Of a stretch of DNA of 64,000 nt, positions 1 through 25,252 are shown piece after piece. Position 1 is the first letter of the stretch; each line of letters starts with the position of its first letter. A program made the position numbers and the translations under genes. The notes below the pieces were generated by a model. The model did no database searches, had not been told where the DNA came from, and saw only the letters and a program-made list of their open reading frames with translations. The stretch is from an uncultured virus (IMG/VR IMGVR_UViG_3300044627_003100) (taxonomy: Duplodnaviria > Heunggongvirae > Uroviricota > Caudoviricetes). Location of the stretch: the IMG/VR virus record IMGVR_UViG_3300044627_003100. One strand, written 5' to 3'.

Positions 1-95
1 TTATTTATAAATATATGAAAAACATACACACACTCCCCACTAATAATATACTGAATTTTTTGCAGTGTAAAAAATCAACATATTAAATGTTATTA

Positions 96-314
96 TTAAG
101 ATTTTAAGGTTACATTAATTTCATTTGCTATTTGACTAGATATTTGTTCATTTGTTTGTTCCTGATTAATTGAAACATTACTACTTGATATTACACTTCT
201 TGTTATATTAAACAGTGTCCAATTAAATAGATTTAGAGAAATATAAGTTATTCCTATGTATAAAGCAACCTGCTCACCGTATATCTTTGGTTCTATTTCT
301 TTAAACTTTATCAT
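96..314 (-). CDS. Hypothetical protein (structural module)
   Basis: 72-aa ORF overlapping the stop of the upstream LamG-like gene. Confidence 0.55.
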   Translation of the reverse strand: MIKFKEIEPKIYGEQVALYIGITYISLNLFNWTLFNITRSVISSSNVSINQEQTNEQISSQIANEINVTLKS

Positions 315-1009
315 AATCCAAATCTTGATTTTTGTGCGTTAAAGTTTTGAGTAACCTCAGATGAGTTTAATATTTTATTGTAAATCATTGTTGTCGCAAG
401 ATTACCTCTCATTGAATCAGTATTACCAGTTAGTAGATTCGATCCTAATCTTGTAACTGTTCCTGATACAGAGAATGAAGAAAATGTGGTTGACCCTACA
501 AAAGCTCCATTTTTATAAACTTCAAAAACATTATTAACTTTATCTAATGTACAGGTTATATTCATCCATTGATTAAAATTATTTGTCACAAAAACAGATC
601 TTTCTACATTTAGCGTGTGATTTAAAACAATTCTATTAGATATCCACATAATGCTTGTAAAATTACTGTATTGTTGCCCTGAAAAAAACATTTCTGTATA
701 TCCATTTGGCCCAACTCCTGTCACATATAACCACTGACTAAAAGTTTGATAATTATTCAACAGTCTTGTATCTGTATTTGCAGGAAGACTGACAGAATCA
801 GCAAAACTTCCGGAAAACAAGATACTTCCTCCACCAAGACCAGAATAAGACCCTCCCGATATAGAAGAATTATATCCATTGCCACTTAAATCAGTCCACG
901 TAGCACCACTTCCCGGATATGACAATGGGTTTCCTGCATCAAGATTTAACACAAGGCCGTTTGTTACTATTCCAAGCCTTTGCACGTTATCTACTATACC
1001 TGCTTTCAT
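311..1009 (-). CDS. LamG/concanavalin A-like lectin domain protein (tail-associated)
   Basis: GLVLNLDAGNPLSYPGSGATWTDLSGNG N-terminus and IYNKILNSSEVTQNFNA C-terminus, typical of phage LamG proteins. Confidence 0.8.
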   Translation of the reverse strand: MKAGIVDNVQRLGIVTNGLVLNLDAGNPLSYPGSGATWTDLSGNGYNSSISGGSYSGLGGGSILFSGSFADSVSLPANTDTRLLNNYQTFSQWLYVTGVGPNGYTEMFFSGQQYSNFTSIMWISNRIVLNHTLNVERSVFVTNNFNQWMNITCTLDKVNNVFEVYKNGAFVGSTTFSSFSVSGTVTRLGSNLLTGNTDSMRGNLATTMIYNKILNSSEVTQNFNAQKSRFGL

Positions 1010-1011
1010 TT

Positions 1012-3672: not shown

Positions 3673-3673
3673 C

Positions 3674-4264
3674 TTAAGTTAAATATGCTGTTCCAGAAAC
3701 AGATTGAGAAAAAGTTAATACCAATGTTGTTGTTGTAGCAGAGGTTACAGAACCAATAATTTCTACACCAGACCCGTCTAATACAAATACATTTGGAATA
3801 AAACCTAAATTGTGAGTTATATTCCAAGTGGTTGCAGCAACAGATTGTGTATGAATATAATCAGCAGTTCCTCCACCAATATTTACAGTGGGGTTTAGAT
3901 TAATTCTAGTTATACAACCACCACTATTAACATCAATAATATTCTGTGTTCCACCTGGATAGGTATATCCTAAAGATAGTGCTGCAGGAGAACATTGAGA
4001 AGAACCTCCAGACTCAATAGCTCCGGAAGTATTCACTTCATAAGTAACTGGAAGCCAAGTGTTATATTGTATAGAAGCAGTTGTTAAAGCATCATTATCT
4101 TCATTAAGTTGCCAACTAACAATTTGCTTTCTTATAACAGCTTGATCATAAGAAGACTTTGTTTTACAACTATTAATTCCATATCTTATGGACTTAAATA
4201 ATTGTTCCACAGCATTAGCATATGTCTTATTATGCCCTATTACATTAGGAAGTAAATTTCTCAT
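3674..4264 (-). CDS. Putative virion structural protein
   Basis: C-terminal HTQSVAATTWNITHNLGFIPNV motif seen in phage tail proteins; position in structural block. Confidence 0.6.
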   Translation of the reverse strand: MRNLLPNVIGHNKTYANAVEQLFKSIRYGINSCKTKSSYDQAVIRKQIVSWQLNEDNDALTTASIQYNTWLPVTYEVNTSGAIESGGSSQCSPAALSLGYTYPGGTQNIIDVNSGGCITRINLNPTVNIGGGTADYIHTQSVAATTWNITHNLGFIPNVFVLDGSGVEIIGSVTSATTTTLVLTFSQSVSGTAYLT

Positions 4265-4269
4265 TATTA

Positions 4270-4407
4270 TTATTGAGTATTTATATTATTTTGTAATAAT
4301 TGTTCATAAATAGGAACGCAACTAGCACAAAGTTTTGTACCATCTGAGGCAACTCTTATTTGACATGAACAAGTGAAAGGAGATTTGCAATATGAACACT
4401 GTCCCAT
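4270..4407 (-). CDS. Small Cys-rich (Zn-finger-like) protein, not in ORF track
   Basis: MGQCSYCKSPFTCSCQIRVASDGTKLCASCVPIYEQLLQNNINTQ; CxxC, CxC, CxxC; fills the gap between neighbours. Confidence 0.65.
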   Translation of the reverse strand: MGQCSYCKSPFTCSCQIRVASDGTKLCASCVPIYEQLLQNNINTQ

Positions 4408-4423
4408 AAAATTGGTTTTTTTA

Positions 4424-4966
4424 TTAATTACAAGAATCAACTAATTTAAGAAGTCTTTTTTGAGCATATATTAACATATCCATTCCTGTTTCTAAATCAG
4501 CACAATATTCCACCTTTGCTTTGGCACCATCAATAAAATTCTTAATTAAAGAAAGTTCTTTTAATTGTTCTTTTACATCAGCATCTGGTTCACAAGCAGA
4601 CATTTCAAGTTTACACAATTCTTTATAATAAAGATTGTTAGTTTGAGTTATTCTCAAATGATCATACTCAACATAAACTACAGAATTAGGAGAAACAGAA
4701 AAACGAATTGTATACACACCATCTGGTAAAACTTGAGCATTCTCACAACCAGAACTTTGTATACCTAATGTACATGCATTTAATATTAAATTAAAGCCAC
4801 TTTGCACATCTATATTTACAGGTTGACTAAACCCGGGAGAAGTAATTTGTAAAAGACCACAATCTACAGGAATATTATCACTGTAGGTGCTAGTATCAGC
4901 CACTCTAAACACCTTTGTATTATTAGTCTCTAGTATTTCTAAACTTAACTGATGTTTACTAGCCAT
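4424..4966 (-). CDS. Putative virion structural protein
   Basis: 180 aa with LPDGVYTIRFSV motif; position in crAss-like structural block. Confidence 0.55.
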   Translation of the reverse strand: MASKHQLSLEILETNNTKVFRVADTSTYSDNIPVDCGLLQITSPGFSQPVNIDVQSGFNLILNACTLGIQSSGCENAQVLPDGVYTIRFSVSPNSVVYVEYDHLRITQTNNLYYKELCKLEMSACEPDADVKEQLKELSLIKNFIDGAKAKVEYCADLETGMDMLIYAQKRLLKLVDSCN

Positions 4967-5106
4967 TGATATAAACTTTTATAATTTATTATAATTTTAA
5001 ATACAACTCCTCAATATTAATTTACTGAATTTTTACCACTTTTCCAAAAACAAAAAGGGAGGTGCACAACTGTACACTCTCCCTGATTGTTATAGGATTA
5101 AATTGC

Positions 5107-6588
5107 TTAATAAGTTTCTAAAGCAATGGTGTTAGCACCCTGAGCAGCGTTTGCGGCAGTAACGAAATAGTTAGTAATAGCAGTGGTAGCTGTACCGGCC
5201 GTTACATTAAATACTAAAGCATATTGATCATTATCATAAGTTCCGTTAGGATTGTTCCAACGAGGAACGTTATGAAGAACAATTACTTTATCATATAAAG
5301 CACTACGTGTAACTTGAGCTAACATAGGATCTGCTTCAATCTCACGCATACGCAGATGTTCCACTCTAGAACTATCAGGATAGGCATTCTGAAGATAACG
5401 TCCGTCCAAAATCAATTCACGTAATAAGGTTTCACCCAGTCCAGAAACTTGCTGAACAGCTTGAATCTCAATACCATGGCTAGATAAATAAGGATTGGCA
5501 GCAGTGATAGCAGCAGTATTTGCTACAAAAGGAGCAGAAATACATACGTCACCACTCTCGTCAATTACAGAAAGATATGCTACCAAAGGTTCCAGTTCAT
5601 ACTTATCAGTAGGAGTGAAAGTACATGCACCAAAAGTAGTTTCTACAAAACCAAGTGTTAATTCAATATGAGGCTGCTGAGTGTAGGTGAAACTAGCTGC
5701 ATCAGCATCTGCTGAGTAAGCAGTAGAAGTTAAACCAGTTGCTACACTTGTACCAGGAATAAGAGCTACTGTACCAGCTTCAGTGTATACATCACTAAAA
5801 AACTGCATAGATACAGCCGCACCAATAGTAGGAGCTACAGCTTGTGCAGGAAATTTAACAACAATACTTGTATTAGCAGTTACAGTGGTTACAAAGCTAT
5901 TAGCAGGAATACCAGTACCGATAACTTTTTGACCCACTACAACACCAGTGGTACTAGTCATAGGAATAGTAGCCTGAAGAGTAGTTACACCAGTAGCAGC
6001 ACCTGTAGCAGAAAGTACAGTTACATACTTATACACACGAGCCTTAACCATTTGATCAAACAAAGGATAGGTGTTAATTTGATCTTTCCATGCTAACAAA
6101 GCCATCACTGGATCTTTTTTATGTGTAGCAGTAGTTGTATTTACACAACCAGACCAATAATCAACAACTCTATACAATTGATGACTTAAATACCGTAATG
6201 CAGGAGAACCTTTAAGATCTATACGAAGTCTGTAAGTTTCATCAGCTGTAAGACCTACACCATTTGCACTTACACGTACAACTTGGTTAATAGCACTTTT
6301 TGATGGAATTCTAATTACACGACTAATAAACTTAGGGTTTACCAGCTTAGATTTAACGGATTCTTTATATCCGCCATGAACACCAATTTTGTCATTCGTG
6401 AAATAAGATCCTTGAATAACAAAAAAAGGAGTTACACCAGCAGCAACAGTTGCAAGTGTAGAGTTAGTAGCACTAGTGGGAGCATACATACCAAGTTGTC
6501 CTGCAGTGAGGGCATTAGTAGCTACGCCTGATGCTAGAGTACCAGAGGAAACCAAGAAAGATTTCCTAAACGCGTGTGGAAAATACAT
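5107..6588 (-). CDS. Putative structural (auxiliary capsid/tail) protein
   Basis: 493 aa, A/T/V-rich; downstream of the MCP block. Confidence 0.6.
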   Translation of the reverse strand: MYFPHAFRKSFLVSSGTLASGVATNALTAGQLGMYAPTSATNSTLATVAAGVTPFFVIQGSYFTNDKIGVHGGYKESVKSKLVNPKFISRVIRIPSKSAINQVVRVSANGVGLTADETYRLRIDLKGSPALRYLSHQLYRVVDYWSGCVNTTTATHKKDPVMALLAWKDQINTYPLFDQMVKARVYKYVTVLSATGAATGVTTLQATIPMTSTTGVVVGQKVIGTGIPANSFVTTVTANTSIVVKFPAQAVAPTIGAAVSMQFFSDVYTEAGTVALIPGTSVATGLTSTAYSADADAASFTYTQQPHIELTLGFVETTFGACTFTPTDKYELEPLVAYLSVIDESGDVCISAPFVANTAAITAANPYLSSHGIEIQAVQQVSGLGETLLRELILDGRYLQNAYPDSSRVEHLRMREIEADPMLAQVTRSALYDKVIVLHNVPRWNNPNGTYDNDQYALVFNVTAGTATTAITNYFVTAANAAQGANTIALETY

Positions 6589-6630
6589 AGGATTTGAATT
6601 TTTGGGTTATAAAATATACAATAAAAAAAA

Positions 6631-7059
6631 TTATTTAAGAAAAAGTAGTTTATATTTAATACTGTTAATTGTGCTTTTTACATTATCAAGATCATTACTT
6701 ATTTCACTGTAAGGCATAATAGACTGTAAAGAGTTTATCATACTTGTCATAGTTCTTAAATAAGCTAATGCTTCTTGAACTGAGTTTAAATTAGTAGGAG
6801 CTACATCACCGCTATATTCCAAAAGTTTTTCAGAAGCTCCTTGAAAACCCTCAGCAAGTGTATCAGCATGTCCTGGAAGAGCGTCATATAGTTCATTAAG
6901 AGCTTTATGACTAGAAAAAGAACCTACACCTGTCACTTTTAAATGAAGCTTATGAAAACTTGCAGAAGCATTCATAAGTTCAGTTACACAAGCTGCAGTT
7001 TTAGCTTCTACAGATGTTCCTGCTGCATTTGATGTACCAGGTCTTTGTAACTTTTGCAT
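6631..7059 (-). CDS. Ferritin/Dps-like four-helix protein
   Basis: FHKLHLKVTGVGSFSSHKALNELYD...DTLAE Dps-like motif; ends KYKLLFLK. Confidence 0.7.
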   Translation of the reverse strand: MQKLQRPGTSNAAGTSVEAKTAACVTELMNASASFHKLHLKVTGVGSFSSHKALNELYDALPGHADTLAEGFQGASEKLLEYSGDVAPTNLNSVQEALAYLRTMTSMINSLQSIMPYSEISNDLDNVKSTINSIKYKLLFLK

Positions 7060-7760
7060 TAACTATTTTTTACACTATTTTGTAAGTTTCTTTGATATTG
7101 ATTCATACTTTCTATGTCACCAGCAAGTATTGAAGCTGCTTCATCAACAAGTATTTCACAGATGTCCTCTTTAAGTTCACAATCCACATTTGTAGTGTAA
7201 ACAGATCCCGTACTAGGATTTACACAATTTATAAACTGAATATCTTTTGGTTTTCTATAGTAGACAAGACTTACATTTTCTACATCAAATAAATTATTTG
7301 TATAGATTTTTATTTTATCTGCACCCACTGTACAAAAGGTTTCAGCCCATTCAAATGAAGGACCTTTAAAATCATCTGATAAAAGAATATCTACGTTAGC
7401 TTCTTCCACCTGATATATAGAAAGACTCACACTTGGACAACAACTTGTCTTTGCAAAACCACTCACTCTTACAAAATGCAAGTAGTTAGAAGGAATAACT
7501 TCTGTTTCGTAATAGTTATTATTCTCTGTTGATTTTAATGTAACAGTATTTAAAAGAACTTGTAAATCATCTATTGTGTTAATACTCTGTTCAGCTGCTT
7601 CTTTTTTAGAATTTAACCCATGAAGTTGTCTGCGAGTCCATTCAATTTGTGCTTTATTAAAAGCTTCTTGAATTTGCCAACATTCAATGTTATCATAATC
7701 AAGACTAGCAAGTTTATTTAAACGTTGTTTAATTTTAATTTGTAACAGGTTATTATTCAT
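7059..7760 (-). CDS. Conserved crAss-like structural protein (ring/adaptor-like)
   Basis: KQRLNKLASLDYDNI...FNKAQ, VYYRKP, EILVDEAASILAG; gene order. Confidence 0.65.
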   Translation of the reverse strand: MNNNLLQIKIKQRLNKLASLDYDNIECWQIQEAFNKAQIEWTRRQLHGLNSKKEAAEQSINTIDDLQVLLNTVTLKSTENNNYYETEVIPSNYLHFVRVSGFAKTSCCPSVSLSIYQVEEANVDILLSDDFKGPSFEWAETFCTVGADKIKIYTNNLFDVENVSLVYYRKPKDIQFINCVNPSTGSVYTTNVDCELKEDICEILVDEAASILAGDIESMNQYQRNLQNSVKNS

Positions 7761-7765
7761 AGGTC

Positions 7766-8782
7766 TTAAGCATTCCAGTATTTCTCAACCTTCTTAGTGA
7801 GATCTATTAAAATTTCTTCATTAAGAGGGTTTTTAAGATATTCAGCAACATCAGAAAGATTTCTTCCGAGCATTGTTGATGTTTGCATATGATAGATAAA
7901 ACCATCTCCTTTTGTAGCAATAAACTTATAATAAGAACTATCTTTAACTATTGCTTTGATTTTTAAAGACTCCATATCTAAACCTGCAGCGTCTAAAAAT
8001 CTTTGAGCAGTTTTACGTTTATCCTTTTCTATAAGTTCACCATTGATATACTTATCCATATTATCATAGATGATATCATTTGGTGTAGACTTCTTATATT
8101 GAGCACTGTTAGGATCTAACAATTTTGCTACATATAAAAGTTTATTTTGATTTTTGTCAAACAACTTTTGAAGTTCAGATAAAGCTTTGTTACGCAATTT
8201 CTTCACTTCAGTTTGTATAGAAGCTGTTTGTTCAAGTTTATCAAGATAGAATTTAGGAGAAACAGCCATTTTTCTAGCTTCTTCTAAACTTTTTGATACT
8301 ATTGAGAAACCACCTGCTTCTATAGCATATAATCTAATCAGATCATAAGGATCAGTATCAGGTTCTAAATACACAGGTTCATTACCACATCTAATTTTAA
8401 TCTTATCCCAAAACTCAAAATTATCTGGTTTAAGCAGTTTAACCTTATTCCAAAATTGTTCATCACTAGGATCAACTACATTAGAAGCAAGTTCTTTTTC
8501 AAGTTGAGACACAACAACTTTAATCTGTTTAATCTTTGCTTCTTGTTCATCTAAAGGAAGTTCTCTTATATCAGGAGAAAACTCATTAAGACCTGTTACA
8601 TAACGTTTAATACCGTTAATTTCTAAACAAGCTAATTGTTCCTCATGAAAAGCACCATCAAAAAGACTAAGTCCATATTTTTGTAATCCCATATTTTCAA
8701 TAACAGGATTAAAATAAGGACGAATAGCAATACTAGATTTCTTGTTCTGTGGATACTTTTCCACAATAGTCACACTACTCAT
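7766..8782 (-). CDS. Conserved crAss-like protein downstream of MCP
   Basis: 338 aa; position; C-terminal LGRNLSDVAEYLKNPLNEEIL. Confidence 0.6.
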   Translation of the reverse strand: MSSVTIVEKYPQNKKSSIAIRPYFNPVIENMGLQKYGLSLFDGAFHEEQLACLEINGIKRYVTGLNEFSPDIRELPLDEQEAKIKQIKVVVSQLEKELASNVVDPSDEQFWNKVKLLKPDNFEFWDKIKIRCGNEPVYLEPDTDPYDLIRLYAIEAGGFSIVSKSLEEARKMAVSPKFYLDKLEQTASIQTEVKKLRNKALSELQKLFDKNQNKLLYVAKLLDPNSAQYKKSTPNDIIYDNMDKYINGELIEKDKRKTAQRFLDAAGLDMESLKIKAIVKDSSYYKFIATKGDGFIYHMQTSTMLGRNLSDVAEYLKNPLNEEILIDLTKKVEKYWNA

Positions 8783-8924
8783 GTTTGGTTTTTTTTATTT
8801 TAAACTGTCCGTAATTTGCGGACAATTGACCTGGTGAAGAGTTACGAGCTCTTCGTGGACGTATCCACCAGGTTATAATTTTGTAAATTAGAAGAAGTTA
8901 CGGCTTCTTATAATTTACAGGAGA

Positions 8925-10544
8925 TTAGAATGAACCACCAGTTACAGGATTTCTCATAACAATCTTTAACACCTTGGTTGGATCTTTAACCCAAATAGCT
9001 GGCATTGTTTGTGTCATGAATACACGATATCCGTTGAAGTTTCCAGAAGACTGGAATCCTTGACTACGTCCCATGTAATCCATAGTACCATTTTGATAGA
9101 ACCATTTCAATTGATTATCCCAAGATAATTTCAACAAGAAGATGTTGTCATTAGTATTCTCAGTGATATCAAATATGATGAAGTTGTAGCTAGACAGAGG
9201 GAAACCATCTATAATAGGATTCTCAATATCATTAGTATGAATATTATCAAACGCTGGGTTCAATACAAACTTAACATTAGCCAAGAACGGAATAACGTAT
9301 TGAGTGTAAGCAAAACCAAAGTTCAGATCCATACCTTTACCTGTGATGGCACCCACCTCAGAAGCATTAATAACAAGACCTGAGTTGATAGCTTCACGCT
9401 TAATGGCTTCATTTACAAGACGCATACCACCCATACCAGTTTGTACAACCAGTGAACGTTTAGGATCTGGTCCTTTAAATTCAACCTTACCATTAAAGAA
9501 GTTGAAGATTTCAGATTTGAAAAGATCTAAGTTAAAAGAAGCTTTGTTATAAACACGTTTGAAAGAGTTATCAAGTTGTTTCCAAAGACCTACAGATAAT
9601 CTGATATCATCTGGACCATCTTGCTTCACCTTTCCACCCTGTCCCCACATTAAGTAGTTCTCAATGTCATTAGCAATCTTGGTCAGATGTGCAGACTCAA
9701 GAGCAGTGAGGAAAGAACGAGTGAGTTGTCCAGAAGCATAAGCTTTCTTAACATAGTCTTTACCCATTTTAGAAGCAATATCTTCTAAACTATTTAAAGA
9801 AGGATCAACATTTTTGTCAAAGTTTCTCCACAATTCAATAACAGGTACAGTACCATCAGCACGAAGACCACCTTTTAACATCAAGTCTGCACGAGAGCTA
9901 ATAGAATAGTGTACGTGAGCTTCAGCACCACCAACGTAGTTATAAAATTCACGGAAACCACCATTCACACTACCAAGATCAGAAAAACGCTCACCATATT
10001 CACCACGAGCAGAACTCTTACGGAAGAATTTAGTTCCCACTTTTAAGTAACGGTTCTCTAAGAAACGAGTGCTATCACTATTTACAAGTTGTACAGTGTA
10101 AATGAAACCATCACCAGCAGGTATGATATCATCTGCAGTGACATACATTTCAACTCCATTATACTTGTCATAAGTGATAATGTCACCATTACCAAAAGAA
10201 CGTTTGTTAATTTTAATCTTGAAAGATTGACCATCAAGACCTTTAGTGGTGTTTGCAGATTCAACATCTTCTAAAATATAAGGAAGATCTTGAGCAACAG
10301 GAACTTGCCACTTGTATTCACCACGGTTGTTATCAACCATAATGACGTTCTTTCCACCAAAACTGGACATTTGATATAAAGGCATTTCTACCTTCTGTGC
10401 CATAGCCCACAGATCAACAGGACCTAAGTCAGTTGGTTCTGCACTCTTAAGCAGATTTGAAAGGTGATAAGAATCTACGTGAGAGCTAGTTTGGTAGCTG
10501 GTATCCCGTAGGAAAATACCATTGTTTAAACTTGGGGTAGGCAT
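8925..10544 (-). CDS. Major capsid protein
   Basis: 539 aa; gene order TerL-portal-acidic protein-MCP; C-terminal TMPAIWVKDPTKVLKI. Confidence 0.8.
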   Translation of the reverse strand: MPTPSLNNGIFLRDTSYQTSSHVDSYHLSNLLKSAEPTDLGPVDLWAMAQKVEMPLYQMSSFGGKNVIMVDNNRGEYKWQVPVAQDLPYILEDVESANTTKGLDGQSFKIKINKRSFGNGDIITYDKYNGVEMYVTADDIIPAGDGFIYTVQLVNSDSTRFLENRYLKVGTKFFRKSSARGEYGERFSDLGSVNGGFREFYNYVGGAEAHVHYSISSRADLMLKGGLRADGTVPVIELWRNFDKNVDPSLNSLEDIASKMGKDYVKKAYASGQLTRSFLTALESAHLTKIANDIENYLMWGQGGKVKQDGPDDIRLSVGLWKQLDNSFKRVYNKASFNLDLFKSEIFNFFNGKVEFKGPDPKRSLVVQTGMGGMRLVNEAIKREAINSGLVINASEVGAITGKGMDLNFGFAYTQYVIPFLANVKFVLNPAFDNIHTNDIENPIIDGFPLSSYNFIIFDITENTNDNIFLLKLSWDNQLKWFYQNGTMDYMGRSQGFQSSGNFNGYRVFMTQTMPAIWVKDPTKVLKIVMRNPVTGGSF

Positions 10545-10576
10545 AGTAAATCGGATTTTAGATTAAATAAAATATT

Positions 10577-11851
10577 TTAACGTTTAAATATATTTGTAGG
10601 TCTAGCTATTTTTCGTGTTCTTGCTTCTGGTTCTTCTTCTTGGTAGGATGAAGCATTTTTACGACTTTGTTCTGTTTTTAGCTGACGCACTGTTTGTTCA
10701 ACTTGTTGATTCTTACCCTGTTTTTTTAATTCAGAACGATAGTCATCAGGGCTAGATAGTAACCAAAGAGCTTCTGCAATCAATGAGTAGTTTGGTTCTA
10801 CAAACTGATATTTCTCTAAAAGATGTCCTAATAAGTTAGTAGGACGTCCACTTATAGAAGGATATTGAGGCTGAACAAGACCACTGTATAATTGAGCTTG
10901 TGTCTTTTTGTCTAGCTTCAGTCCGTTGATTTCAGCTGGTCTCAAAGCTTCAAATACATTCTGCATGTAAGCTTGAGCAGCTTGCTCTTGTTGTTGTTTT
11001 TTACCTTCCTGTTCTGCAAGTTGAGATTGAACAATCTGTTCTTGCATTTGATCCAGTTTAGGTTTAAACTGTTTAGCTTTCTTTTCTAATACACCAAGAT
11101 CTTTCCAAGTGGTAATTTCTTCTTCAATTTCTTCCTCATTACCAAAACCAGTGGCTTGTAAATATGATTTAACAATACCTTCTTGGTCATTCTCGTCAGT
11201 GGGATTTAAAGATCTCACTTGTTCAACTTGAGCTAGAGCTTGGAACAATCCTTTAAGATCTTGTCCTCCATCCATCACATATTTAGCAGCATATTGAAGT
11301 TCATCTGGTAAAGACTCAAAAAACTCTTTTGGAGTTTTAGCAGCAACTTCTTGCTTAAGGTTTTCTACATTAGCTTGCCAGAGTTCTTCTACGTCTTTTT
11401 CTCCAAGACCAACTAAATAATCATCAAGACTTTGCTTACTTTCATCATAATCATCAAAGGCAAACATCTCTTTAGACTCTATACGTTTCTTTAGAAACTC
11501 AACAAGTCCTGATTTTTCAGTTTTAGGACGACCTGGTTTTGATTTCTTATCATCAAAATCTTCATCATCTTTATTTAACTCATCAAAGATGTTTTCAGTG
11601 GATGTTCCACGTGGAACAGTGTCTTTAGATTTATCAGGAGTGTCACCACCTTCTAAATCATCAGCTGGTTCATCATCAATAAAACTAAGATCTACATCTT
11701 TTTTACTAAAAATACTTGGTTTTGCTTCTGGTTTTTTTGCATCGGTTGATGTAGCTGTCACAATGCTTTCTGCACCAGGAGCACCTAACCAGCTATCAAT
11801 ATCAACATCTACTTGTTGCACATTAGTCTGTACATTTGATTGGGTATCCAT
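10577..11851 (-). CDS. Acidic coiled-coil protein between portal and MCP (scaffold-like)
   Basis: 424 aa, D/E-rich N-terminus; conserved crAss-like position. Confidence 0.6.
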   Translation of the reverse strand: MDTQSNVQTNVQQVDVDIDSWLGAPGAESIVTATSTDAKKPEAKPSIFSKKDVDLSFIDDEPADDLEGGDTPDKSKDTVPRGTSTENIFDELNKDDEDFDDKKSKPGRPKTEKSGLVEFLKKRIESKEMFAFDDYDESKQSLDDYLVGLGEKDVEELWQANVENLKQEVAAKTPKEFFESLPDELQYAAKYVMDGGQDLKGLFQALAQVEQVRSLNPTDENDQEGIVKSYLQATGFGNEEEIEEEITTWKDLGVLEKKAKQFKPKLDQMQEQIVQSQLAEQEGKKQQQEQAAQAYMQNVFEALRPAEINGLKLDKKTQAQLYSGLVQPQYPSISGRPTNLLGHLLEKYQFVEPNYSLIAEALWLLSSPDDYRSELKKQGKNQQVEQTVRQLKTEQSRKNASSYQEEEPEARTRKIARPTNIFKR

Positions 11852-11967
11852 AACTTATTTGGTTTTTTATGGGGAGTTCTTCTACATTAAAAATATACGA
11901 TTTTAAACTCTTAAAATTTAAAATGTATTATAAAAAAATAGCTGAAGTAAGGATAATAGAGCTATAA

Positions 11968-14721
11968 TTATTTACCTGTCTTTTTACTAGATGATTTTAC
12001 ATCATATTTGTTCTTGTTTTCTCTAGCAATTTGTAATTGCTTGTCAGCTATTTCTTTTTGAGCCTGCAACTTTTCTCTATCTAATTGTAGTTTTTGTTGA
12101 TTAGTGCTTGTTTTATTTACTTCTTGCTCACGTTTAAAGTTCATTTGCTCTTGATAATTCTCCTGCTTTCTAATCCCTTCTAAAGCATCTTGATAGTCAG
12201 ACTGCTTATTTTCATTTATATCTACAGCTGAACCATATCCTGCAGCCCGTATTTCAGCCACTGTGATGTCTTTCTGTATCATTTTGTCATCACGATCGGC
12301 CTGAGCTTGAAGATCCATTTGTTTTTGTTTTTCCTGACTAGCCATAAGTTCTTGCTGCATTTGCTGCTGAATTTGCTGCTCTTGTTGTTTTTGAGCAAGC
12401 ATTTTTTCTTCAGCAGCTTTAAGAACACCTGTGAGTTCAGCTATAGATTCAGATTTAATAACATTTCCAAGATCGTATATAGAAGCTCCGGTGGTATTAT
12501 TATTAATAGCTAGTTGTTTAAGCTGCTCCATTACAGCACGGGAATTAGTTTTAGTAGTGCAGAATATATTAAGATCTCTAAGAAGAAGGTCTGTACCGTT
12601 CATCTCAAAGTTCATTTTCTCATCCTTAGACGTGATGTATGTTAGTCTTACACTAGGTTTAGTGGAATGATAATACTGAGCCAGGTCAGTTCTCATCTGA
12701 TGAACTCTAGGCATTAGATTATCACTATGCTGTATAAAGTATTGTTCTGTTTGAGCATAGCTAGCATTCATAGCTTGTTCTACGGCCGTAGCTGTTTGTT
12801 GTTGAGCTATTTGAGCTCCCATACGTTGAGGATTCAAACCAATCACTTCAAATGCTTGATTTTTAAAATATGTAGCAAGTTGAATACGAGATAGTAAACG
12901 ATTTGTTTGCTCAAGATTTAACACTTGATAATGCTGAAAATTTAATGCATTCTCAGTGTTAGTGATGGAAGTGTCTAAGGGCAACATCTGAAAATTCTTC
13001 ATAGCTACATAAGCCTTAGCTAAATTGTTCTTTCCCCAATCTTCACCCATAGAATGACGTGGTAGAGAATTTTGATCCAATAGAATAACTGTTCCAAGCT
13101 CATCTACTAATATATCAGCTATTTGGTTGTTTACAATATTAAAGCTAATTTGGTAGGGTTTCATAAGATCTACCATAGATGTACTACGGGAGTTTCTGTC
13201 TCCAAATACTGCTCCTTCTACAGGAAGCTTACAACCATATAATGTATTATCACCTTTAAACTGAAATGGAATACGTCCTGGTTTACCTCCATTAAGTCCT
13301 AAATAGATAGGATTTATACCTCCTGGATTATTTTGACCCCAGAAAGCTGGTCTATTGGGTCCAATCTTAATGCCTCCCCATGTTTCATTAATCCAAATCC
13401 AATCTATATGCTCACCAAATATTAAGTTATCTTTAGACTTTTGTTTATATAAAGCTGTGTTATACAATGGTTTATCTGTAACCTTGTATTTTTCACTAAT
13501 TATTTCTTGTATAATTTCACCTTCTTCTGTGATTTTAGTAAGATGACCTAGTTTACGTTGAGACTTCCAATAAATAGTGGAAACTCTAAGCATATGAGAT
13601 TTACCAAAATCCACTACATCTTCAGAATCTGAAAGAATCCATTCTACAATATCACCTGTACCAAATTGATTATCATGTATAGACATATGTTGTCTATAAG
13701 CAAGAGAAGGCATTTGTGTATTCCAGTCATGAGATTTTGTAGCGTCATAATAACTTCCATCATTTTGATAACCTGGTATCATATAACCTGAAGAACGGAC
13801 AGGATAAACTGATTCTAAAGACTCTAATTGTTCTTGAGTCATCATCCAACCATACTTATCAATAACGTCTGGTAAAGATAGGAGATCCATCTTACCTACC
13901 CAGTTTCCCTGGGAAATGTAACGTACATCAGGAGATTTATGATAGAATGTTAATAACGGATTCCAAAGTTCTAGCTCATAGTCATCTTCCATCATTCTAA
14001 AATGCCAAAACTCACGATCTGTAATAAGCATGTCACGGAATGCACGTTCTTCAAGTTCTTGCATTTTAAACCTTTCTTCGTCTACACTCATTTGATGAGA
14101 AGCCCACTCCTCAATCATTGATCTATAGTCTTTACGAAAGAATGATTCTATCTCAGGAAGTTGTTTTAAATTATCAGGAGCTGTTGCTTTTTGCATTTCT
14201 TCACTATCTAACTCCACTCCCATATTGAGCATTTGCATCATCATCTTACGTTCAGCATCCTGTAAAAGGACGTTTTCAAGCATAGCTCTTTTTTCTTCTA
14301 ACATCTCGTTATAAGAAATATCATCTACGGCTTTAAACATAATACGAGAAGAACGCTTAGAAAACTCGTTACATAGAACATTTACTACGTTGGGAATAAT
14401 AGGATAGAATTTGAGTTCTAAAGCTGATTCATCCTCTTTAGTTAGAGTGTCTATTAGATCAGCCATCTCATTATCTTCTTCTATAATATAGTCTGTTTTG
14501 TCAATTAGCCCTTTAGAAAGCTTGTAGTTTTTCATTAATCTACGAGCATTACGTCTAAGTTGCTTCATTCCTTGGAACTCTAGCCAGTCAAGATTGTGAG
14601 ACCTCCATTCATCATCTTTCTCTTTTTCTGGCAAAAACTGAATTGGCTGGGTAAGTGTACCCATCTTCTTATGTTCAGCTTTTTTACCAGCTTTTAGATC
14701 TAGAGCATTATATAACTGCAT
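11968..14721 (-). CDS. Portal protein
   Basis: 917 aa; FYPIIPNVVNVLCNEFSKR, SMVDLMKPYQI, Q-rich C-terminal coiled coil; next to TerL. Confidence 0.85.
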   Translation of the reverse strand: MQLYNALDLKAGKKAEHKKMGTLTQPIQFLPEKEKDDEWRSHNLDWLEFQGMKQLRRNARRLMKNYKLSKGLIDKTDYIIEEDNEMADLIDTLTKEDESALELKFYPIIPNVVNVLCNEFSKRSSRIMFKAVDDISYNEMLEEKRAMLENVLLQDAERKMMMQMLNMGVELDSEEMQKATAPDNLKQLPEIESFFRKDYRSMIEEWASHQMSVDEERFKMQELEERAFRDMLITDREFWHFRMMEDDYELELWNPLLTFYHKSPDVRYISQGNWVGKMDLLSLPDVIDKYGWMMTQEQLESLESVYPVRSSGYMIPGYQNDGSYYDATKSHDWNTQMPSLAYRQHMSIHDNQFGTGDIVEWILSDSEDVVDFGKSHMLRVSTIYWKSQRKLGHLTKITEEGEIIQEIISEKYKVTDKPLYNTALYKQKSKDNLIFGEHIDWIWINETWGGIKIGPNRPAFWGQNNPGGINPIYLGLNGGKPGRIPFQFKGDNTLYGCKLPVEGAVFGDRNSRSTSMVDLMKPYQISFNIVNNQIADILVDELGTVILLDQNSLPRHSMGEDWGKNNLAKAYVAMKNFQMLPLDTSITNTENALNFQHYQVLNLEQTNRLLSRIQLATYFKNQAFEVIGLNPQRMGAQIAQQQTATAVEQAMNASYAQTEQYFIQHSDNLMPRVHQMRTDLAQYYHSTKPSVRLTYITSKDEKMNFEMNGTDLLLRDLNIFCTTKTNSRAVMEQLKQLAINNNTTGASIYDLGNVIKSESIAELTGVLKAAEEKMLAQKQQEQQIQQQMQQELMASQEKQKQMDLQAQADRDDKMIQKDITVAEIRAAGYGSAVDINENKQSDYQDALEGIRKQENYQEQMNFKREQEVNKTSTNQQKLQLDREKLQAQKEIADKQLQIARENKNKYDVKSSSKKTGK

Positions 14722-14726
14722 GATTA

Positions 14727-15062
14727 TTAATTATTTAGATCAACTGTAAGAAACGTATTAGTGACAGAAGTTCCTAGATTTGGATTACTAACAGTAGTGC
14801 AAGTTCCTGTACTATCATAAGTATAAATAACTGGTGTTGTACCACTACCAATATTAGTATATGGATTAGGAGTGTTAATTATTGGATTGTTCCAACCAGG
14901 ATAGTATTTAACCGGAGATTCTGCAACAGCTTCTTCTTCTTCTTTCTCTTCTTCTAGATCTTCTTCTTTTAAAAGCAAAAGTGCCTCTTCTAACGTGAGA
15001 GAACTATCTTTTATTAATCTACTTAGAATAGCAACTTTATCTTGATACAGTGAGTTTTCCAT
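14727..15062 (-). CDS. Hypothetical protein
   Basis: 111-aa ORF coupled to the TerL stop. Confidence 0.55.
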   Translation of the reverse strand: MENSLYQDKVAILSRLIKDSSLTLEEALLLLKEEDLEEEKEEEEAVAESPVKYYPGWNNPIINTPNPYTNIGSGTTPVIYTYDSTGTCTTVSNPNLGTSVTNTFLTVDLNN

Positions 15063-17263
15063 TATTTTAAGTTTTTAAAGGGTGAACGAGCTATTTTCAT
15101 ACCATTAGAAGCTCTTCCAGAAGAACCCATGTGTCTGAAAGGTCCCCAATTTAATTTACTAAATTTTTGTGAGTTATCCAATTTTTTATTCCCATACTCT
15201 AAACGCTTAGCAAGACCTCTGTTAGATTGTTGCACCTTTGCAAATGCTATAAGTGCACAAAAAGAAACAAGTCTATCCACGTTTACACCATCTCTGTATG
15301 CTTGCATTTCTTTTAACAACATGATGTCTGGAATACGTTCAACACCATATATTGTTTTAACTATTTCTCCATCAGGCTTAGTTTCATGATCTAGTTCCTC
15401 TCTTAAAAATTCAATTCCATAAGATAGAATTGTGCCCTTAAAAAGTGTACCTACGTTTTTCCAACCATACTCTTGAAAGACATTTCTGTTGGCACCTATA
15501 TCTTTTAAGAACAAAATCATGTCTTTAGGAACTAAATAACGCTGTTTCTTTTTAGAAATCATGTATTGTATGAACAGAGCTACGTTATTTTCCACTATAG
15601 TCCATGCATTATACCATTCTATAAGAAGTTCTAAACGTTCATGTGTTTTATTAATATCATCAAATCTTCCACACCAAGAAGCAACTATACCATCTCTTTC
15701 TATACTGTTCTTCACCTTACCATCTCCGTCATCTCTAATTATTTCTACAGGGTTTTTATAAATATATATAGCACAAAGAGAATCTGAGGTTGTTGTCTTA
15801 CCCTCTCCCACTGGATCTACAGAAGCATAATATGTTCCAAACTGGGGATCTTTCATAGGACGCTCATATACACATATCACTCCCTCTTTGTTTTCTAGTT
15901 TTTTAGAAATTGGAAATTCCATAATAGGAATCTTTCTAGAGGGTTTATCTACAATCTTTCCTTCAGCATCACGAGAAAGTTCCAGATATTCCACTGAATA
16001 CTCTCTATCTTGAATACGTTGCATTTGTTTTGAAACCAAATGTGGGGGAAATACACTTATTTTTCTTGTAGCAAAAGCCTCTTCTATATTACGAGGACTT
16101 TGAGAAAGTTCCAGCTGATATGCTTCAGGCTTTAGTTCACTCTTAGCTTTTTCAAATCTTTTCTCTAAAGCTTCTAAAGCTTCTTTCACCATAGAGTTAC
16201 CAAACTCATCTATGTACGGAGGCATGCTCCACTGTTCAGGAATAAAAAGACCAGTGATACCTATTGTACCATCTTTATCTATTAGATTGGATTTTACACC
16301 ATAAAAACCATTCTCTTCAGGATGAAGAACATATTCTTTTAAAGGTTCACATTGATCAAGATCACCCACAGATCCTGCAGCAATAAATTGACCAGTGATT
16401 ATTTCACCAGATTTTAAAGCTGGTTTAATAAATCCATATGTATCATCCATTTTAGGAGCAATACCTGCTTCTTCATGAAAGAAATAAGTTACGGGACCAC
16501 CTACACCATTTGTTGGATCTTTCTCAAAAGAATAACCATTTATAGTTGATTTAAGACCTTTATAAGTATCTCGGCCGTTAACCCTCACTTTAATTTTTTG
16601 CTCCCAAGCAAATACCTTGTCAGGTTCTGCTGGTCTATACCAAGCAGTGTGTTCATTAATAAAGTTTCTATATTCATTTAGAAACTTCCAAGAACCTTTT
16701 TCATTAATATAATCTTTTAGAGAAGATCCTATTTTACAAATGGAACCTGATTCAAAAACCCATTGATTAATCAGCTTAGCCATGTGAAAATAAGAAGAAG
16801 CAATTTGACGTTTTTTAAGAATAATAGCATGCTTGTAATTAAGCTCTCCTAATAATTCATAAAGAGCCATGTGATATTGAGCATCTCTCACCTTTGCAAA
16901 ATCAAACTTTTTTTCTTCCTTATCATATATGGGAAGAAAGTTAAGCCACATATAGTAGTCACGACTGATATACCATTCACTATTATCATTTTTGACAATA
17001 ATGCCTGATTTACACTTTATTTTCTGGTCATCCCAGTAAATTCTAAAGTCTTTGGATTTAAATGGAGCAGCACAATAAAAACCTTGTTTTCTAAACTTAC
17101 GTCCTTCTGAATTAAATACTAAAGAACTTTCATCAAAATTATATTCACCAGGTTCTTTAAATATAGAAAATATATAATCTGCAAAGTCTTTTCTTGTAAA
17201 AAAAGATGTTGTAGTCCATTGATTATTTTCATATGTAGGAACTTCTATAAACATTTTATTCAT
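15062..17263 (-). CDS. terL: Terminase large subunit
   Basis: ILKKRQIASS (Walker A variant), FFHEEAG (Walker B), YYASVDP nuclease motif, IVENN, NVDR. Confidence 0.9.
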   Translation of the reverse strand: MNKMFIEVPTYENNQWTTTSFFTRKDFADYIFSIFKEPGEYNFDESSLVFNSEGRKFRKQGFYCAAPFKSKDFRIYWDDQKIKCKSGIIVKNDNSEWYISRDYYMWLNFLPIYDKEEKKFDFAKVRDAQYHMALYELLGELNYKHAIILKKRQIASSYFHMAKLINQWVFESGSICKIGSSLKDYINEKGSWKFLNEYRNFINEHTAWYRPAEPDKVFAWEQKIKVRVNGRDTYKGLKSTINGYSFEKDPTNGVGGPVTYFFHEEAGIAPKMDDTYGFIKPALKSGEIITGQFIAAGSVGDLDQCEPLKEYVLHPEENGFYGVKSNLIDKDGTIGITGLFIPEQWSMPPYIDEFGNSMVKEALEALEKRFEKAKSELKPEAYQLELSQSPRNIEEAFATRKISVFPPHLVSKQMQRIQDREYSVEYLELSRDAEGKIVDKPSRKIPIMEFPISKKLENKEGVICVYERPMKDPQFGTYYASVDPVGEGKTTTSDSLCAIYIYKNPVEIIRDDGDGKVKNSIERDGIVASWCGRFDDINKTHERLELLIEWYNAWTIVENNVALFIQYMISKKKQRYLVPKDMILFLKDIGANRNVFQEYGWKNVGTLFKGTILSYGIEFLREELDHETKPDGEIVKTIYGVERIPDIMLLKEMQAYRDGVNVDRLVSFCALIAFAKVQQSNRGLAKRLEYGNKKLDNSQKFSKLNWGPFRHMGSSGRASNGMKIARSPFKNLK

Positions 17264-17286
17264 CCAACCCTATTGGGTTTTTTAAG

Positions 17287-17379
17287 CTGTAAGGGGACGA
17301 TTTGAACGTCCAAGCTTTTATTATTAGTAAAAGCACCACCGAGACAAGGTGGCGTGTCTACCAGTTTCACCACCTTACA
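17287..17379 (-). tRNA. Atypical class II (long variable arm) tRNA with GTC (Asp) anticodon
   Basis: TGTAAGG/CCTTACA acceptor, G73, D arm GTG-AAACTGGTAGA-CAC, CCACC-TTGTCTC-GGTGG, 7-bp variable stem, GGACG-TTCAAAT-CGTCC. Confidence 0.8.
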
Positions 17380-21070: not shown

Positions 21071-21181
21071 AATTAGTGTTTGTTTACATTAATAATATAC
21101 TAAATAAGTTTAAACCCTCCAAATTTAGTTTTAACTTCTGTAAGTATATATGTAAATTATTAACACATGTGTATAAGCTAG

Positions 21182-21252
21182 TTTCTCCTTTTGGAATTGA
21201 ACCAAAACTAACAGAGCCAAAATCTGTTGTACTACCGTTATACTAAGAAGAA
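21182..21252 (-). tRNA. tRNA-Gln(TTG)
   Basis: TTCTTCT/AGGAGAA acceptor; ACAGA-TTTTGGC-TCTGT; TTTGG-TTCAATT-CCAAA. Confidence 0.85.
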
Positions 21253-21258
21253 CTATAG

Positions 21259-21329
21259 AGACACCAGACAGAATCAAACTGTCCTTAACTGTTTTGCAAA
21301 CAGCCACCTAATCACTCGGCCATGGTGTC
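21259..21329 (-). tRNA. tRNA-Cys(GCA)
   Basis: GACACCA/TGGTGTC acceptor, U73; GCTGT-TTGCAAA-ACAGT; GACAG-TTTGATT-CTGTC. Confidence 0.88.
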
Positions 21330-21336
21330 TTATATG

Positions 21337-21409
21337 CATGGGTGCCAGGCTACGATCCTGGGACTTCTAGTTTTGGAGACTAGCACTCTACCAACTGAGT
21401 TACACCCAC
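21337..21409 (-). tRNA. tRNA-Trp(CCA)
   Basis: GTGGGTG/CACCCAT acceptor, G73; CTAGT-CTCCAAA-ACTAG; CCAGG-ATCGTAG-CCTGG. Confidence 0.9.
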
Positions 21410-21411
21410 AT

Positions 21412-21448
21412 AAAACAAAAAACCCGGTTAGAGCTATTCTAACCGGGC
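21412..21448 (-). terminator. Intrinsic terminator (attenuator) directly upstream of the tRNA operon
   Basis: GCCCGGTTAGA-ATAGC-TCTAACCGGGT followed by TTTTTGTTTT on the - strand. Confidence 0.85.
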
Positions 21449-21469
21449 TACACTAATTATAATTATTAA

Positions 21470-21544
21470 CTAGACATAATATTCCCGGCTGACAGACTGC
21501 TGCCAGAAACAGAAAACATTACATATAGAAATCATCACCTTCAT
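21470..21544 (-). CDS. Putative leader peptide MKVMISICNVFCFWQQSVSREYYV
   Basis: 24-codon ORF with TGT-TTC-TGG-CAG-CAG just before antiterminator segment AGCCGGG. Confidence 0.7.
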   Translation of the reverse strand: MKVMISICNVFCFWQQSVSREYYV

Positions 21545-21556
21545 AATACAATATAC
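21542..21556 (-). promoter_or_regulatory. Recurrent phage promoter-like motif (GTATATT + AT-rich) abutting the leader ATG
   Basis: GTATATTGTATTATG; similar motif at about 7 other gene-upstream sites. Confidence 0.55.
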
Positions 21557-21566
21557 ATATTTTTTA

Positions 21567-21779
21567 TCACTTTTTACCTTTTTTATTACTAGCCTGTGGA
21601 TAGACACTCCCAAGCTTCACTTGATTCTTTAATTCATCAATATGTATCCAAGCTTCTCTTCCAGGCTGAACAGTGTATTTAAATACAATCTGTTCTAAAG
21701 GAAGATCTCCATTTACATAGAGAGAAACAAGAGATTCTAAATCCGTATATACAATAATATCTTTTTCCATAGAAAACAA
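21567..21779 (-). CDS. Hypothetical protein
   Basis: 70-aa ORF. Confidence 0.45.
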   Translation of the reverse strand: MFSMEKDIIVYTDLESLVSLYVNGDLPLEQIVFKYTVQPGREAWIHIDELKNQVKLGSVYPQASNKKGKK

Positions 21780-21966
21780 AATTATATAAAAAATTTTACA
21801 AATACTTCTATATGTGTATAACTAACCCCGGGGTTGTATTTACATCCCCCCTATGAAAATAGTGTAGTAGAGGATGTAGTTACCTCTCCATTTAAAGTCC
21901 CCCTCCTGACTTCTTTGAGCTCCGCACCCCCCTTAAATTCAGTGTTAACTTAAAACTTAAATCAAA

Positions 21967-22203
21967 ATGAGCACAACTCAATCTACACTCGACAGTATCA
22001 GTTTGCAAGCATTTAAAGACCTAAATGGCATTGCAAACATTAAAGTAAACCAAGGCACAGGTAGAATGTTTGCAGACACAGTTGCAGGCAGACTATACTT
22101 TGCAGAAAAGGTTAATCTTCAAAAGCCATTATTCGTGGCTAAAGGTACTTATGACAGTTACTGGGTATTCAACCAGAACGTGAAAGAAGTAGCTACCCTT
22201 TAA
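21967..22203 (+). CDS. Hypothetical protein, first gene of the + strand block
   Basis: 78 aa; followed by hairpin AGCTACCCTT/AAGGGTGGCT plus T-run. Confidence 0.7.
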   Translation: MSTTQSTLDSISLQAFKDLNGIANIKVNQGTGRMFADTVAGRLYFAEKVNLQKPLFVAKGTYDSYWVFNQNVKEVATL

Positions 22204-22634
22204 GGGTGGCTTTTCTTTAGGACGTTACTAAGGAGGATCGTGAGCACAAAGCCACGGTTCTCCTTTTACATCTACACGTTACATGATTTGTTTATTTATT
22301 CATTCACACATACATGTTTGCTATTACAGCAAGCGGAACTGTGATTCTGGTAGGTAGTATGATGGCTGCCATCAGATTAGCAGAAGAGCTACGTAGTGCG
22401 TAGGCTCTCAATCAGGTTGTAATCCGGATTTCCTGAAGTTCCCTAGAACAAAAAGCCGGAATTCCCTAATGATAATCAATGGTAATGTGTTGATTGTCAA
22501 GGTTTTATGTGTGGTTGTGTGAATGGTAGTAACACAACCACACTTTTTCTCATTTGTTTCTATTACCAATCAAGAAATTTTTGTCGCGGATAAGATGGCT
22601 ATATATTACATTCATTCACCAAAACCCTAATTAT

Positions 22635-24786: not shown

Positions 24787-25213
24787 GGGGCCGTATTGGT
24801 TTTGACAGCAAGGGTAATGATAGTATCACATGCAAGGCTTGGGAGAGCCAAACAACTCCTAAACAATAATTGACAACCGTCAATCTGAAGGCGCAGCCAT
24901 TATCAATATGGCTTTCGCTAATGTACGTGTAGCAGTTGCTGCATAATACATCGCCTGACCAGCGTTCATAACGGTCACAAGCACACGTGTCTTCTCTGTT
25001 TGCACGTAATAGAACAGAGTGGTGGAAGGTTATACACCAGTATGACCCCAATACTAATCAGAATAAGTGAACTGTGTGGACTACAGCAGTTTAATGTCTG
25101 GGAGGCAGCTTAAACAGATTAAACTCTTGCTACTGTGTACAGTATAGCTAAGCATGTAAAAATGGTATTATGATTGACTTGTTTGGACAGGGGTTCGACT
25201 CCCCTCGGCTCCA
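24787..25213 (+). ncRNA. ssrA: tmRNA
   Basis: 5' GGGGCCGTATTGGTTTTGAC; 3' GGACAGGGGTTCGACTCCCCTCGGCTCCA with G3-U70; tag frame 24872-24946 DNRQSEGAAIINMAFANVRVAVAA*. Confidence 0.93.
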
Positions 25214-25252
25214 CAGTATTTACTAATTAATAACAATAAAAACACACAAACC

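Follow-up and report, generated by a model that had tools for sequence, protein, structure and literature searches.

A leader-peptide attenuator of the trp/ilv type, mediated by the ribosome and with tRNA genes as its output, probably lies on the minus strand of a 64,000-nucleotide (nt) stretch from an uncultured virus of the Caudoviricetes (IMG/VR record IMGVR_UViG_3300044627_003100; this whole stretch is called the window). A short leader open reading frame (ORF), an intrinsic terminator and the genes for tRNA-Trp, tRNA-Cys and tRNA-Gln are located directly after the small gene orf70 (21770-21567), close to the start of the leftward arm of genes. An attenuator tied to the tRNA cluster had been proposed from the letters of the DNA without database searches (the sequence-only reading), and the proposal is supported by comparative tests, as relatives retain the ORF and its frame together with the terminator and the alternative pairing. 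The ORF, its codons, the box AGCCGGG and the three tRNA genes were recovered at identical coordinates, the tRNA genes with ARAGORN and Rfam. The window represents lineage A in the following; unless otherwise indicated, coordinates refer to its minus strand. The locus consists of these features:

21545-21556, minus strand: motif GTATATTGTATT abutting the leader ATG, with GTATATT invariant in four lineages
21470-21544, minus strand: leader ORF of 24 codons plus stop, with the peptide MKVMISICNVFCFWQQSVSREYYV (ORF list, translation)
21497-21523, minus strand: control-codon stretch, with TGT at 21523-21521 and TTC TGT TTC TGG CAG CAG at 21514-21497
21470-21528, minus strand: leader hairpin (segments 1:2), -18.2 kcal/mol, z -1.75
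21484-21490, minus strand: antiterminator box AGCCGGG (segment 2), pairing with CCCGGTT at 21447-21441
21453-21473, minus strand: spacer hairpin between stop codon and terminator, the inner helix of the predicted antiterminator structure
21410-21449, minus strand: intrinsic terminator (segments 3:4), with a stem of 12 bp (21449-21421) followed by a T-tract (21420-21410)
21336-21409, minus strand: tRNA-Trp (CCA), ARAGORN, Rfam 58.8 bits
21258-21329, minus strand: tRNA-Cys (GCA), ARAGORN, Rfam 50.9 bits
21181-21252, minus strand: tRNA-Gln (UUG), ARAGORN, Rfam 60.7 bits

The terminator contains 6 G-C pairs, a 5-nt loop and the tail TTTTGTTTTA. Its presence had been recognized correctly, but the stem consists of 12 pairs and not of 11. 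Between 20000 and 23000 five terminator-like sites were found, compared with 1.3 expected from shuffles. As the terminator ends only 1-11 nt before tRNA-Trp, there is no room for a separate tRNA promoter. The complementarity of AGCCGGG to the 5' arm CCCGGTT was confirmed and comprises 7 pairs, one of them G.U. Within the leader hairpin the control codons are located in the 5' strand and the box in the 3' strand; the apical stem is formed by CTGGCAG (21506-21500) paired with CTGTCAG (21495-21489). In the ORF list of the window the leader ORF is nested in a longer frame started by TTG (21613-21470). The upstream motif had been described as promoter-like. A sigma-70-type match at 21570-21543 scores 9/12, and such matches are no commoner than chance (10 found, 11.6 expected), which makes the promoter the weak point of the claim. 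However, the motif GTATATT..TT(G)TATG adjoins the leader ATG in all four lineages. The GTATATTGTATT motif may be a promoter or a start-site context.

In the proposed mechanism a ribosome slowed at the Cys, Phe, Trp (or Gln) codons by scarce charged tRNA would hold segment 1. The free box would pair with the terminator 5' arm as this arm emerges, and RNA polymerase would then continue into tRNA-Trp-Cys-Gln. During fast translation the ribosome would pass the box and reach the stop codon 12 nt beyond; with the box covered, the terminator would fold and transcription would stop before the tRNAs. New charged tRNAs would relieve the stalling, a negative feedback that would match supply to demand. 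Candidate causes of a tRNA depletion are heavy late translation, host shut-off and tRNA-cleaving defence. The trigger originally proposed, starvation or anticodon nucleases, is pure inference.

The neighbouring proteins orf101 and orf70, and subsequently the terminase, served as anchors in the search for relatives. The same layout is kept in three further metagenomic lineages, with flanking genes about 50-70% identical:

Lineage A: the window and three near-identical contigs (L001-L003); tRNAs after the terminator are Trp, Cys and Gln
Lineage B: L012 and L150; orf70 about 72% identical to the window; Trp, Cys, a decayed Phe remnant and Gln
Lineage C: L008; orf70 about 54% and orf101 47% identical; Trp, Cys, Phe and Thr
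Lineage D: L154; orf70 about 50% identical; Trp and Cys

Profile scans of viral contigs with orf70 returned known lineages only. The 14-mer TTCTGTTTCTGGCA occurs in at least 118 stretches of the viral contigs and is too unspecific to find relatives; a gapped pattern gave 18 stretches there, 5 of them true (already known lineages) and 13 chance matches in unrelated GC-rich DNA. The start motif common to C and D gave 10 stretches and was true only in L154 and L008. A metagenome scan yielded one B-like contig (L150) and one false match (L151). In the genome contigs no relative was found by protein search; a pattern search gave at least 120 stretches, and none of the 6 flagged by a screen is a relative. 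GenBank phages showed tRNA-level matches or nothing. Among 80 loci of relatives of the large terminase (TerL) a Trp-Cys cluster was present in one (L154), with many of these loci too short upstream to show one.

The expectation that the leader ORF is conserved in relatives with Trp-Cys tRNAs was borne out, as ATG and frame are kept in four lineages. In each of them an ATG-started ORF of 22-25 codons (24, 24, 22 and 25 in A, B, C and D) ends shortly before the terminator. The peptides are MKVMISICNVFCFWQQSVSREYYV in A, MKVVISICNVFCFWQQSVSREYYV in B, MRHTCTTTFFCFWHRSAGEGVS in C and MKHTSTTCPIFTCWCPAGGCMCCTE in D, and the single UGG is codon 14, 14, 13 and 14, respectively. In C and D there is no in-frame start codon upstream of the leader ATG. 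The nucleotides TTCTGTTTCTGGCA are common to A and C and are read in one frame in both; the sequence between ATG and this core is unrelated, and despite the differing upstream sequence the conserved core TTCTGTTTCTGG is in frame in both. A comparison of A with B revealed 74/75 identical nucleotides in the leader, 163/201 (81%) in orf70, 226/317 (71%) in orf101 and 90-97% in the tRNAs. With synonymous positions included in this identity, the leader is conserved like an RNA gene. In A, C and D the box is followed by the stop codon at a distance of 11-14 nt, and in A the stop codon is located 20 nt ahead of the terminator; a ribosome at the stop codon would therefore occlude the box and not the terminator.

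A conserved ORF could also encode a functional Cys/Trp-rich micropeptide with its own terminator, the position before the tRNAs being incidental. The F-C-(F)-W core shared by the peptides and the start M-(K/R)-H-T common to C and D would fit such a function. We consider it very improbable, since the peptides are unrelated outside the core, the conserved nucleotides after the Trp codon are in a different frame in A than in C, the conservation between A and B is at the nucleotide level and the ORF is embedded in the switch structure.

The codon content of the leader was compared with the residue frequencies in the long ORFs of the window (W 1.3%, C 1.2%, Q 3.9%, F 4.4%, T 6.3%) and with 5000 shuffles that preserve the dinucleotide content. 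Residues cognate to the tRNAs of the respective lineage are distributed as follows:

Lineage A: 5/23 residues, binomial 0.014; 0 and 4 in the other frames; count reached by 96/5000 shuffles
Lineage C: 10/21 residues, binomial 1.5e-4; 2 and 3 in the other frames; count reached by 26/5000 shuffles
Lineage D: 7/24 residues, binomial 1.7e-6; 1 and 0 in the other frames; count reached by 4/5000 shuffles

The middle of the A leader reads F-C-F-W-Q-Q, with an additional C before it. The leader of C, with tRNAs for Trp, Cys, Phe and Thr, contains TCTTTFFCFW, and the leader of D, with tRNAs for Trp and Cys, contains six Cys codons and one Trp codon. The hypothesis had been framed on A before the other two lineages, C and D, were examined, and these therefore act as tests of it. 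The claim that the control codons match the downstream tRNAs is thus upheld by an enrichment in frame, except that the link to Gln (CAG codons, UUG anticodon) is weak. For the residues that differ between the lineages the comparison with the tRNA content gave the following result:

Gln codons: 2 in A and B, 0 in C, 0 in D; tRNA-Gln in A and B only; agreement
Phe codons: 3 in C, 2 in A and B, 1 in D; tRNA-Phe in C, decayed in B; agreement as a trend
Thr codons: 4 in C, 5 in D, 0 in A and B; tRNA-Thr in C only; disagreement for D

The co-variation of leader codons with tRNA identity that the sequence-only reading anticipated is real but partial: it applies to Gln and, as a trend, to Phe, and fails for Thr in D and for Phe in A and D. 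The link to Phe was absent from that reading; the TTC codons of the leaders match a tRNA-Phe, which C carries and which is decaying in B. All Phe codons of the leader are TTC (6/6), compared with 15% in the genome; TTC pairs with the GAA anticodon by Watson-Crick rules and also fits the helix. In B the spacer between tRNA-Cys and tRNA-Gln aligns with the tRNA-Phe of C, and the anticodon loop CTGAAAA is identical. This decaying tRNA-Phe(GAA) was located in L012 (2000-2076) and L150 (1475-1530) with an intact anticodon loop and a shortened D arm. The remnant, which gives no tRNA score at E<=1, is more eroded in L150, where the T arm is also deleted, and is wholly absent from the window. The decayed gene in B accounts for the Phe codons of the A and B leaders, which lag behind the loss of the tRNA. 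L012, L150 and the window form a small series of stepwise tRNA gene loss.

In every lineage the ORF region is predicted to fold as one long hairpin with UGG in the 5' strand of the apical stem. The energies are -18.2, -18.2, -21.5 and -23.6 kcal/mol in A, B, C and D (z -1.75, -1.60, -2.30 and -2.02). The 3' strand of each hairpin contains a G/C-rich box complementary to the terminator 5' arm of the same lineage. The energies of the box:arm duplexes were compared with 300 shuffled leaders:

Lineage A: AGCCGGG with CCCGGUU, -13.3 kcal/mol; 14/300 shuffles as good
Lineage B: UCAGCCGGG with CCCGGUUGG, -16.8 kcal/mol; 3/300 shuffles as good
Lineage C: GCCGGGG with CCCCGGC, -19.4 kcal/mol; 0/300 shuffles as good
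Lineage D: GGGGUUGUA with UACAGCCCC, -17.8 kcal/mol; 3/300 shuffles as good

A single A-to-G change in the arm of B keeps the terminator via a G.U pair and lengthens the antiterminator. A terminator is present in B, C and D; the stem in C is bulged and was found by folding only. If the transcripts are cut before the terminator 3' arm, the box:arm helix is part of the minimum-energy fold in 4/4 lineages. Folding with and without ribosome occlusion gave a divided result. In the truncated transcripts the probability that the arm is paired upstream is 0.58-0.87 with a modelled ribosome that has the Trp codon in its A site, and it falls to 0.00-0.26 with a modelled ribosome over the box, a result in favour of the attenuator. 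At equilibrium, the full-length RNA keeps the terminator, and so do the ribosome-masked full-length folds, apart from a partial loss in D, so that these folds do not discriminate between the models. The RNAalifold analysis of a four-sequence MAFFT alignment is uninformative, as the sequences are divergent and the terminator is misaligned.

This stability of the terminator at equilibrium counts against the proposed attenuator, as do several other results. The upstream pairing of the 5' arm is not above shuffles for A, C and D, where 213, 42 and 44 of 300 reach it, and stands out in B alone (5/300). Truncated folds without a ribosome also favour the antiterminator, with probabilities of 0.46-0.89. 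The attenuator thus stands or falls with the order of folding and the position of the ribosome. On the side of the codons, D contains five Thr codons without a tRNA-Thr, A and D carry Phe codons without an intact tRNA-Phe, and in D four more Cys codons (CMCC) follow the box, where a stall should favour termination. Gln codons of the phage are CAA in 80% and CAG in 20%, and the leader uses CAG twice, inside the apical stem. The link to Gln is weak because CAG is rare and not the Watson-Crick cognate of the UUG anticodon, and the position of these codons in the stem means that structure alone could explain them. Four lineages with three deep branches leave the co-variation without formal significance. 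Finally, RNA contigs from one freshwater metatranscriptome run match only 21983-22155 and 22455-22592 on the plus strand, in the rightward arm; the first match has zero differences and lies inside a 78-amino-acid ORF (21967-22203). These contigs show presence in an RNA library only, and as they cover other parts than the leader, they allow no inference on its expression.

The structural data could also be read as a conditional terminator or riboregulator that works independently of the ribosome. Hairpin, box and terminator would respond to a ligand such as a protein or a tRNA, while the ORF would merely result from the U/G-rich helix strand as a by-product. The conserved structures, the preservation of the leader at synonymous sites too and the fit of the rare codons TTC and CAG to the helix pairing are consistent with this possibility. 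We regard it as unlikely, given that indels have left the ATG, the length of the ORF, its stop position and its frame intact and that cognate codons are enriched in one frame only and beyond composition. A known class of such elements was not recognized either: for the T-box (RF00230) there is no match in 21100-21900 even at E<=10, and Rfam revealed no family beyond tRNA and tmRNA (transfer-messenger RNA) at the gathering threshold. The best sub-threshold match, the trpB motif RF04312, reaches 28.8 bits compared with a gathering score of 59 and rests on the generic shape of a hairpin plus terminator.

The leader-terminator module is present in 4/4 lineages with a Trp-Cys cluster and was found directly after orf70 in 0/7 orf70-bearing lineages without this cluster (L004, L175, L177, L179, L187, L228, L231). 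This count leaves out weak orf70 matches in L221 (25 amino acids) and L151, and the matches L005, L007 and L180 were taken as the same lineages as L004 and L177. In L004, L175, L177, L187 and L228 there is no terminator-like hairpin up to 330 nt past the orf70 stop codon. L179 shows just a weak 6-bp hairpin 249 nt downstream of orf70, and in L231 a lone tRNA-Cys directly after orf70 is followed by a terminator. These data bear on another alternative, an ordinary, somewhat leaky terminator of the early orf70 transcript, with the tRNAs transcribed by constitutive readthrough and the ORF and the complementarity due to chance. The terminator is canonical, and short ORFs like these arise often, with one at least as long in 624 to 1819 of 5000 shuffles. 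Nevertheless, this explanation appears distinctly unlikely, as none of the seven orf70 homologues mentioned above has such a terminator directly after it. Furthermore, in C an additional 45-codon ORF separates orf70 from the leader while leader and terminator are still attached to the tRNAs, and both the codon enrichment and the box:arm fit are seen again in C and D, whose sequences differ.

A gene of the HxlR helix-turn-helix type (Pfam PF01638, E 1.5e-18 for L154) is located at 1629-2003 in L154, at about 2199-2606 in L008 and at about 2164-2598 in L004. It follows the tRNA cluster in C and D and orf70 in the tRNA-less L004; at the corresponding place in the window there is no such gene. The presence or absence of the module together with the same downstream gene in L004, C and D indicates that leader, terminator and tRNAs behave as a single insertion or deletion between orf70 and the HxlR gene. 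The same attenuator could have its main target beyond the tRNAs, namely the HxlR-type regulator in C and D and orf101 with the structural arm in A, and would then act as a check of translation capacity before late expression. The HxlR-like gene behind the tRNAs in C and D points in this direction, and a terminator scan of the window found no terminator after tRNA-Gln. On the other hand, a conserved promoter-like box precedes orf101 in all lineages, and L004 has orf70 and then the HxlR gene with neither leader nor terminator. We therefore give little credence to this variant and retain the tRNA genes as the probable output of the attenuator. The box and the upstream gene are:

21087-21126, minus strand: repeated promoter-like box between the tRNAs and orf101, with similar boxes at 11918-11885 and 60-38 (both minus strand)
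21567-21770, minus strand: orf70, the small upstream gene and first of the leftward arm, 67 amino acids from the ATG at 21770 (ORF list)

The repeated box (consensus AAATTTg.AG.GTTTAAA...GTATATTaTTAaTG) sits in intergenic gaps of the structural arm and is kept ahead of the orf101 homologues in L008, L154, L004, L012 and L231. It is probably the promoter of the structural genes of this phage group, and its copy at 21126-21087 suggests that the genes after the tRNAs have a promoter of their own. The 3' part of the box resembles the motif abutting the leader ATG. The orf70 family (10 proteins, with 46-76% identity across the family) contains no Pfam domain in any member, and orf70 itself has no PHROG match.

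The window is phage DNA: among the minus-strand genes in 1-17300, PHROG profiles identified those for the large terminase, a portal protein, a major head protein and proteins of the tail and virion. Leftward genes start at about 21800 and rightward genes at about 21970, and the GC skew changes its sign there. The nearest viral contig record (G001; 109,819 bp, rated 84% complete) has the same three tRNAs. A crAss-like affiliation of the phage is only hinted at, not established, by two tRNA-level matches.

A full-length tmRNA gene was identified at 24787-25216 on the plus strand (Rfam RF00023, 88.9 bits, E 3.7e-33, model positions 1-374). It was also called by ARAGORN, with an odd predicted tag peptide. 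A phage with both a ribosome-rescue RNA and a probable switch based on stalling may merit attention. ARAGORN additionally called a 94-nt tRNA-Asp (GTC) at 17286-17379 on the minus strand, directly upstream of the terminase gene, which Rfam did not report at the gathering threshold. Similar calls of 94-96 nt precede the terminase gene in the relatives L152, L169, L170, L205, L209 and L210. It could represent either a tRNA carrying an insertion or a tRNA-like element. In the terminase relatives L198, L199 and L218-L224 a similar tRNA-like sequence precedes tRNA-Cys; it is long and carries a large insert behind the anticodon region.

Beyond the single locus, the balance of evidence tilts slightly towards a portable leader-terminator-tRNA module in phages, whose leader, with codons for several amino acids, couples tRNA transcription to the shortage of exactly the corresponding charged tRNAs and whose control codons drift with the tRNA cargo as tRNAs are gained and lost. 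Such a module would let the phage adjust its own tRNA supply to demand, and it might also respond as a sensor to the depletion or cleavage of host tRNAs. The sequence-only reading knew of no attenuator with tRNA output. In agreement with this, no Rfam family of this kind was found, and the literature searched, with subscription journals largely outside its scope, describes no attenuator or leader peptide before tRNA genes, crAss-like phages included. Phage-borne tRNAs have been discussed as a supplement or replacement for host tRNAs and as a counter to tRNA-targeting defence (PMC10264068, PMC11555353, PMC12409363). In their accessible parts these papers provide a possible rationale and describe no regulatory leader for phage tRNA genes. 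If the attenuator operates as proposed, it would represent the shortest possible feedback loop on translation capacity, phage tRNA genes could be regulated rather than simply expressed, and the leader would be a compact natural sensor for several charged tRNAs at once. It bears on the debate whether phage tRNAs serve codon supplementation or the replacement of depleted or cleaved host tRNAs.

Several known systems share parts of this design. T-box riboswitches sense tRNA charging and choose between terminator and antiterminator; they bind the tRNA directly without a ribosome and contain the conserved Stem I and the T-box sequence. The trpB motif RF04312 and the Bacteroid-trp leader are putative amino-acid attenuators, some of them in Bacteroidota. 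They resemble the phage leader in a large hairpin followed by a terminator and differ in gene context. The attenuator of the E. coli trp operon (trpL) consists of a short leader ORF with control codons in segment 1 and the mutually exclusive helices 1:2, 2:3 and 3:4; a ribosome at the stop codon blocks segment 2, and an intrinsic terminator is located directly before the regulated genes. The predicted structures of the phage leader show the same four-segment anatomy. In contrast to trpL, the present leader is located in a phage, would sense several amino acids and would have tRNA genes instead of biosynthetic enzymes as output. Leader-peptide attenuation is a textbook mechanism that, to our knowledge, is known to control genes for biosynthesis, transport, synthetases or resistance; behind the phage terminator three tRNA genes come first, which departs from the usual output in amino-acid biosynthesis, transport or tRNA charging. 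The leaders of ilvGMEDA and ilvBN mix control codons for more than one amino acid, as does the phage leader, and in the pheST attenuator (pheM) a leader peptide regulates a translation component by charged tRNA-Phe, which parallels the link to the translation apparatus. The outputs of these systems are enzymes or a synthetase, whereas the phage leader is followed by the tRNAs that decode its control codons, and the proposed attenuator would therefore form a direct feedback loop.

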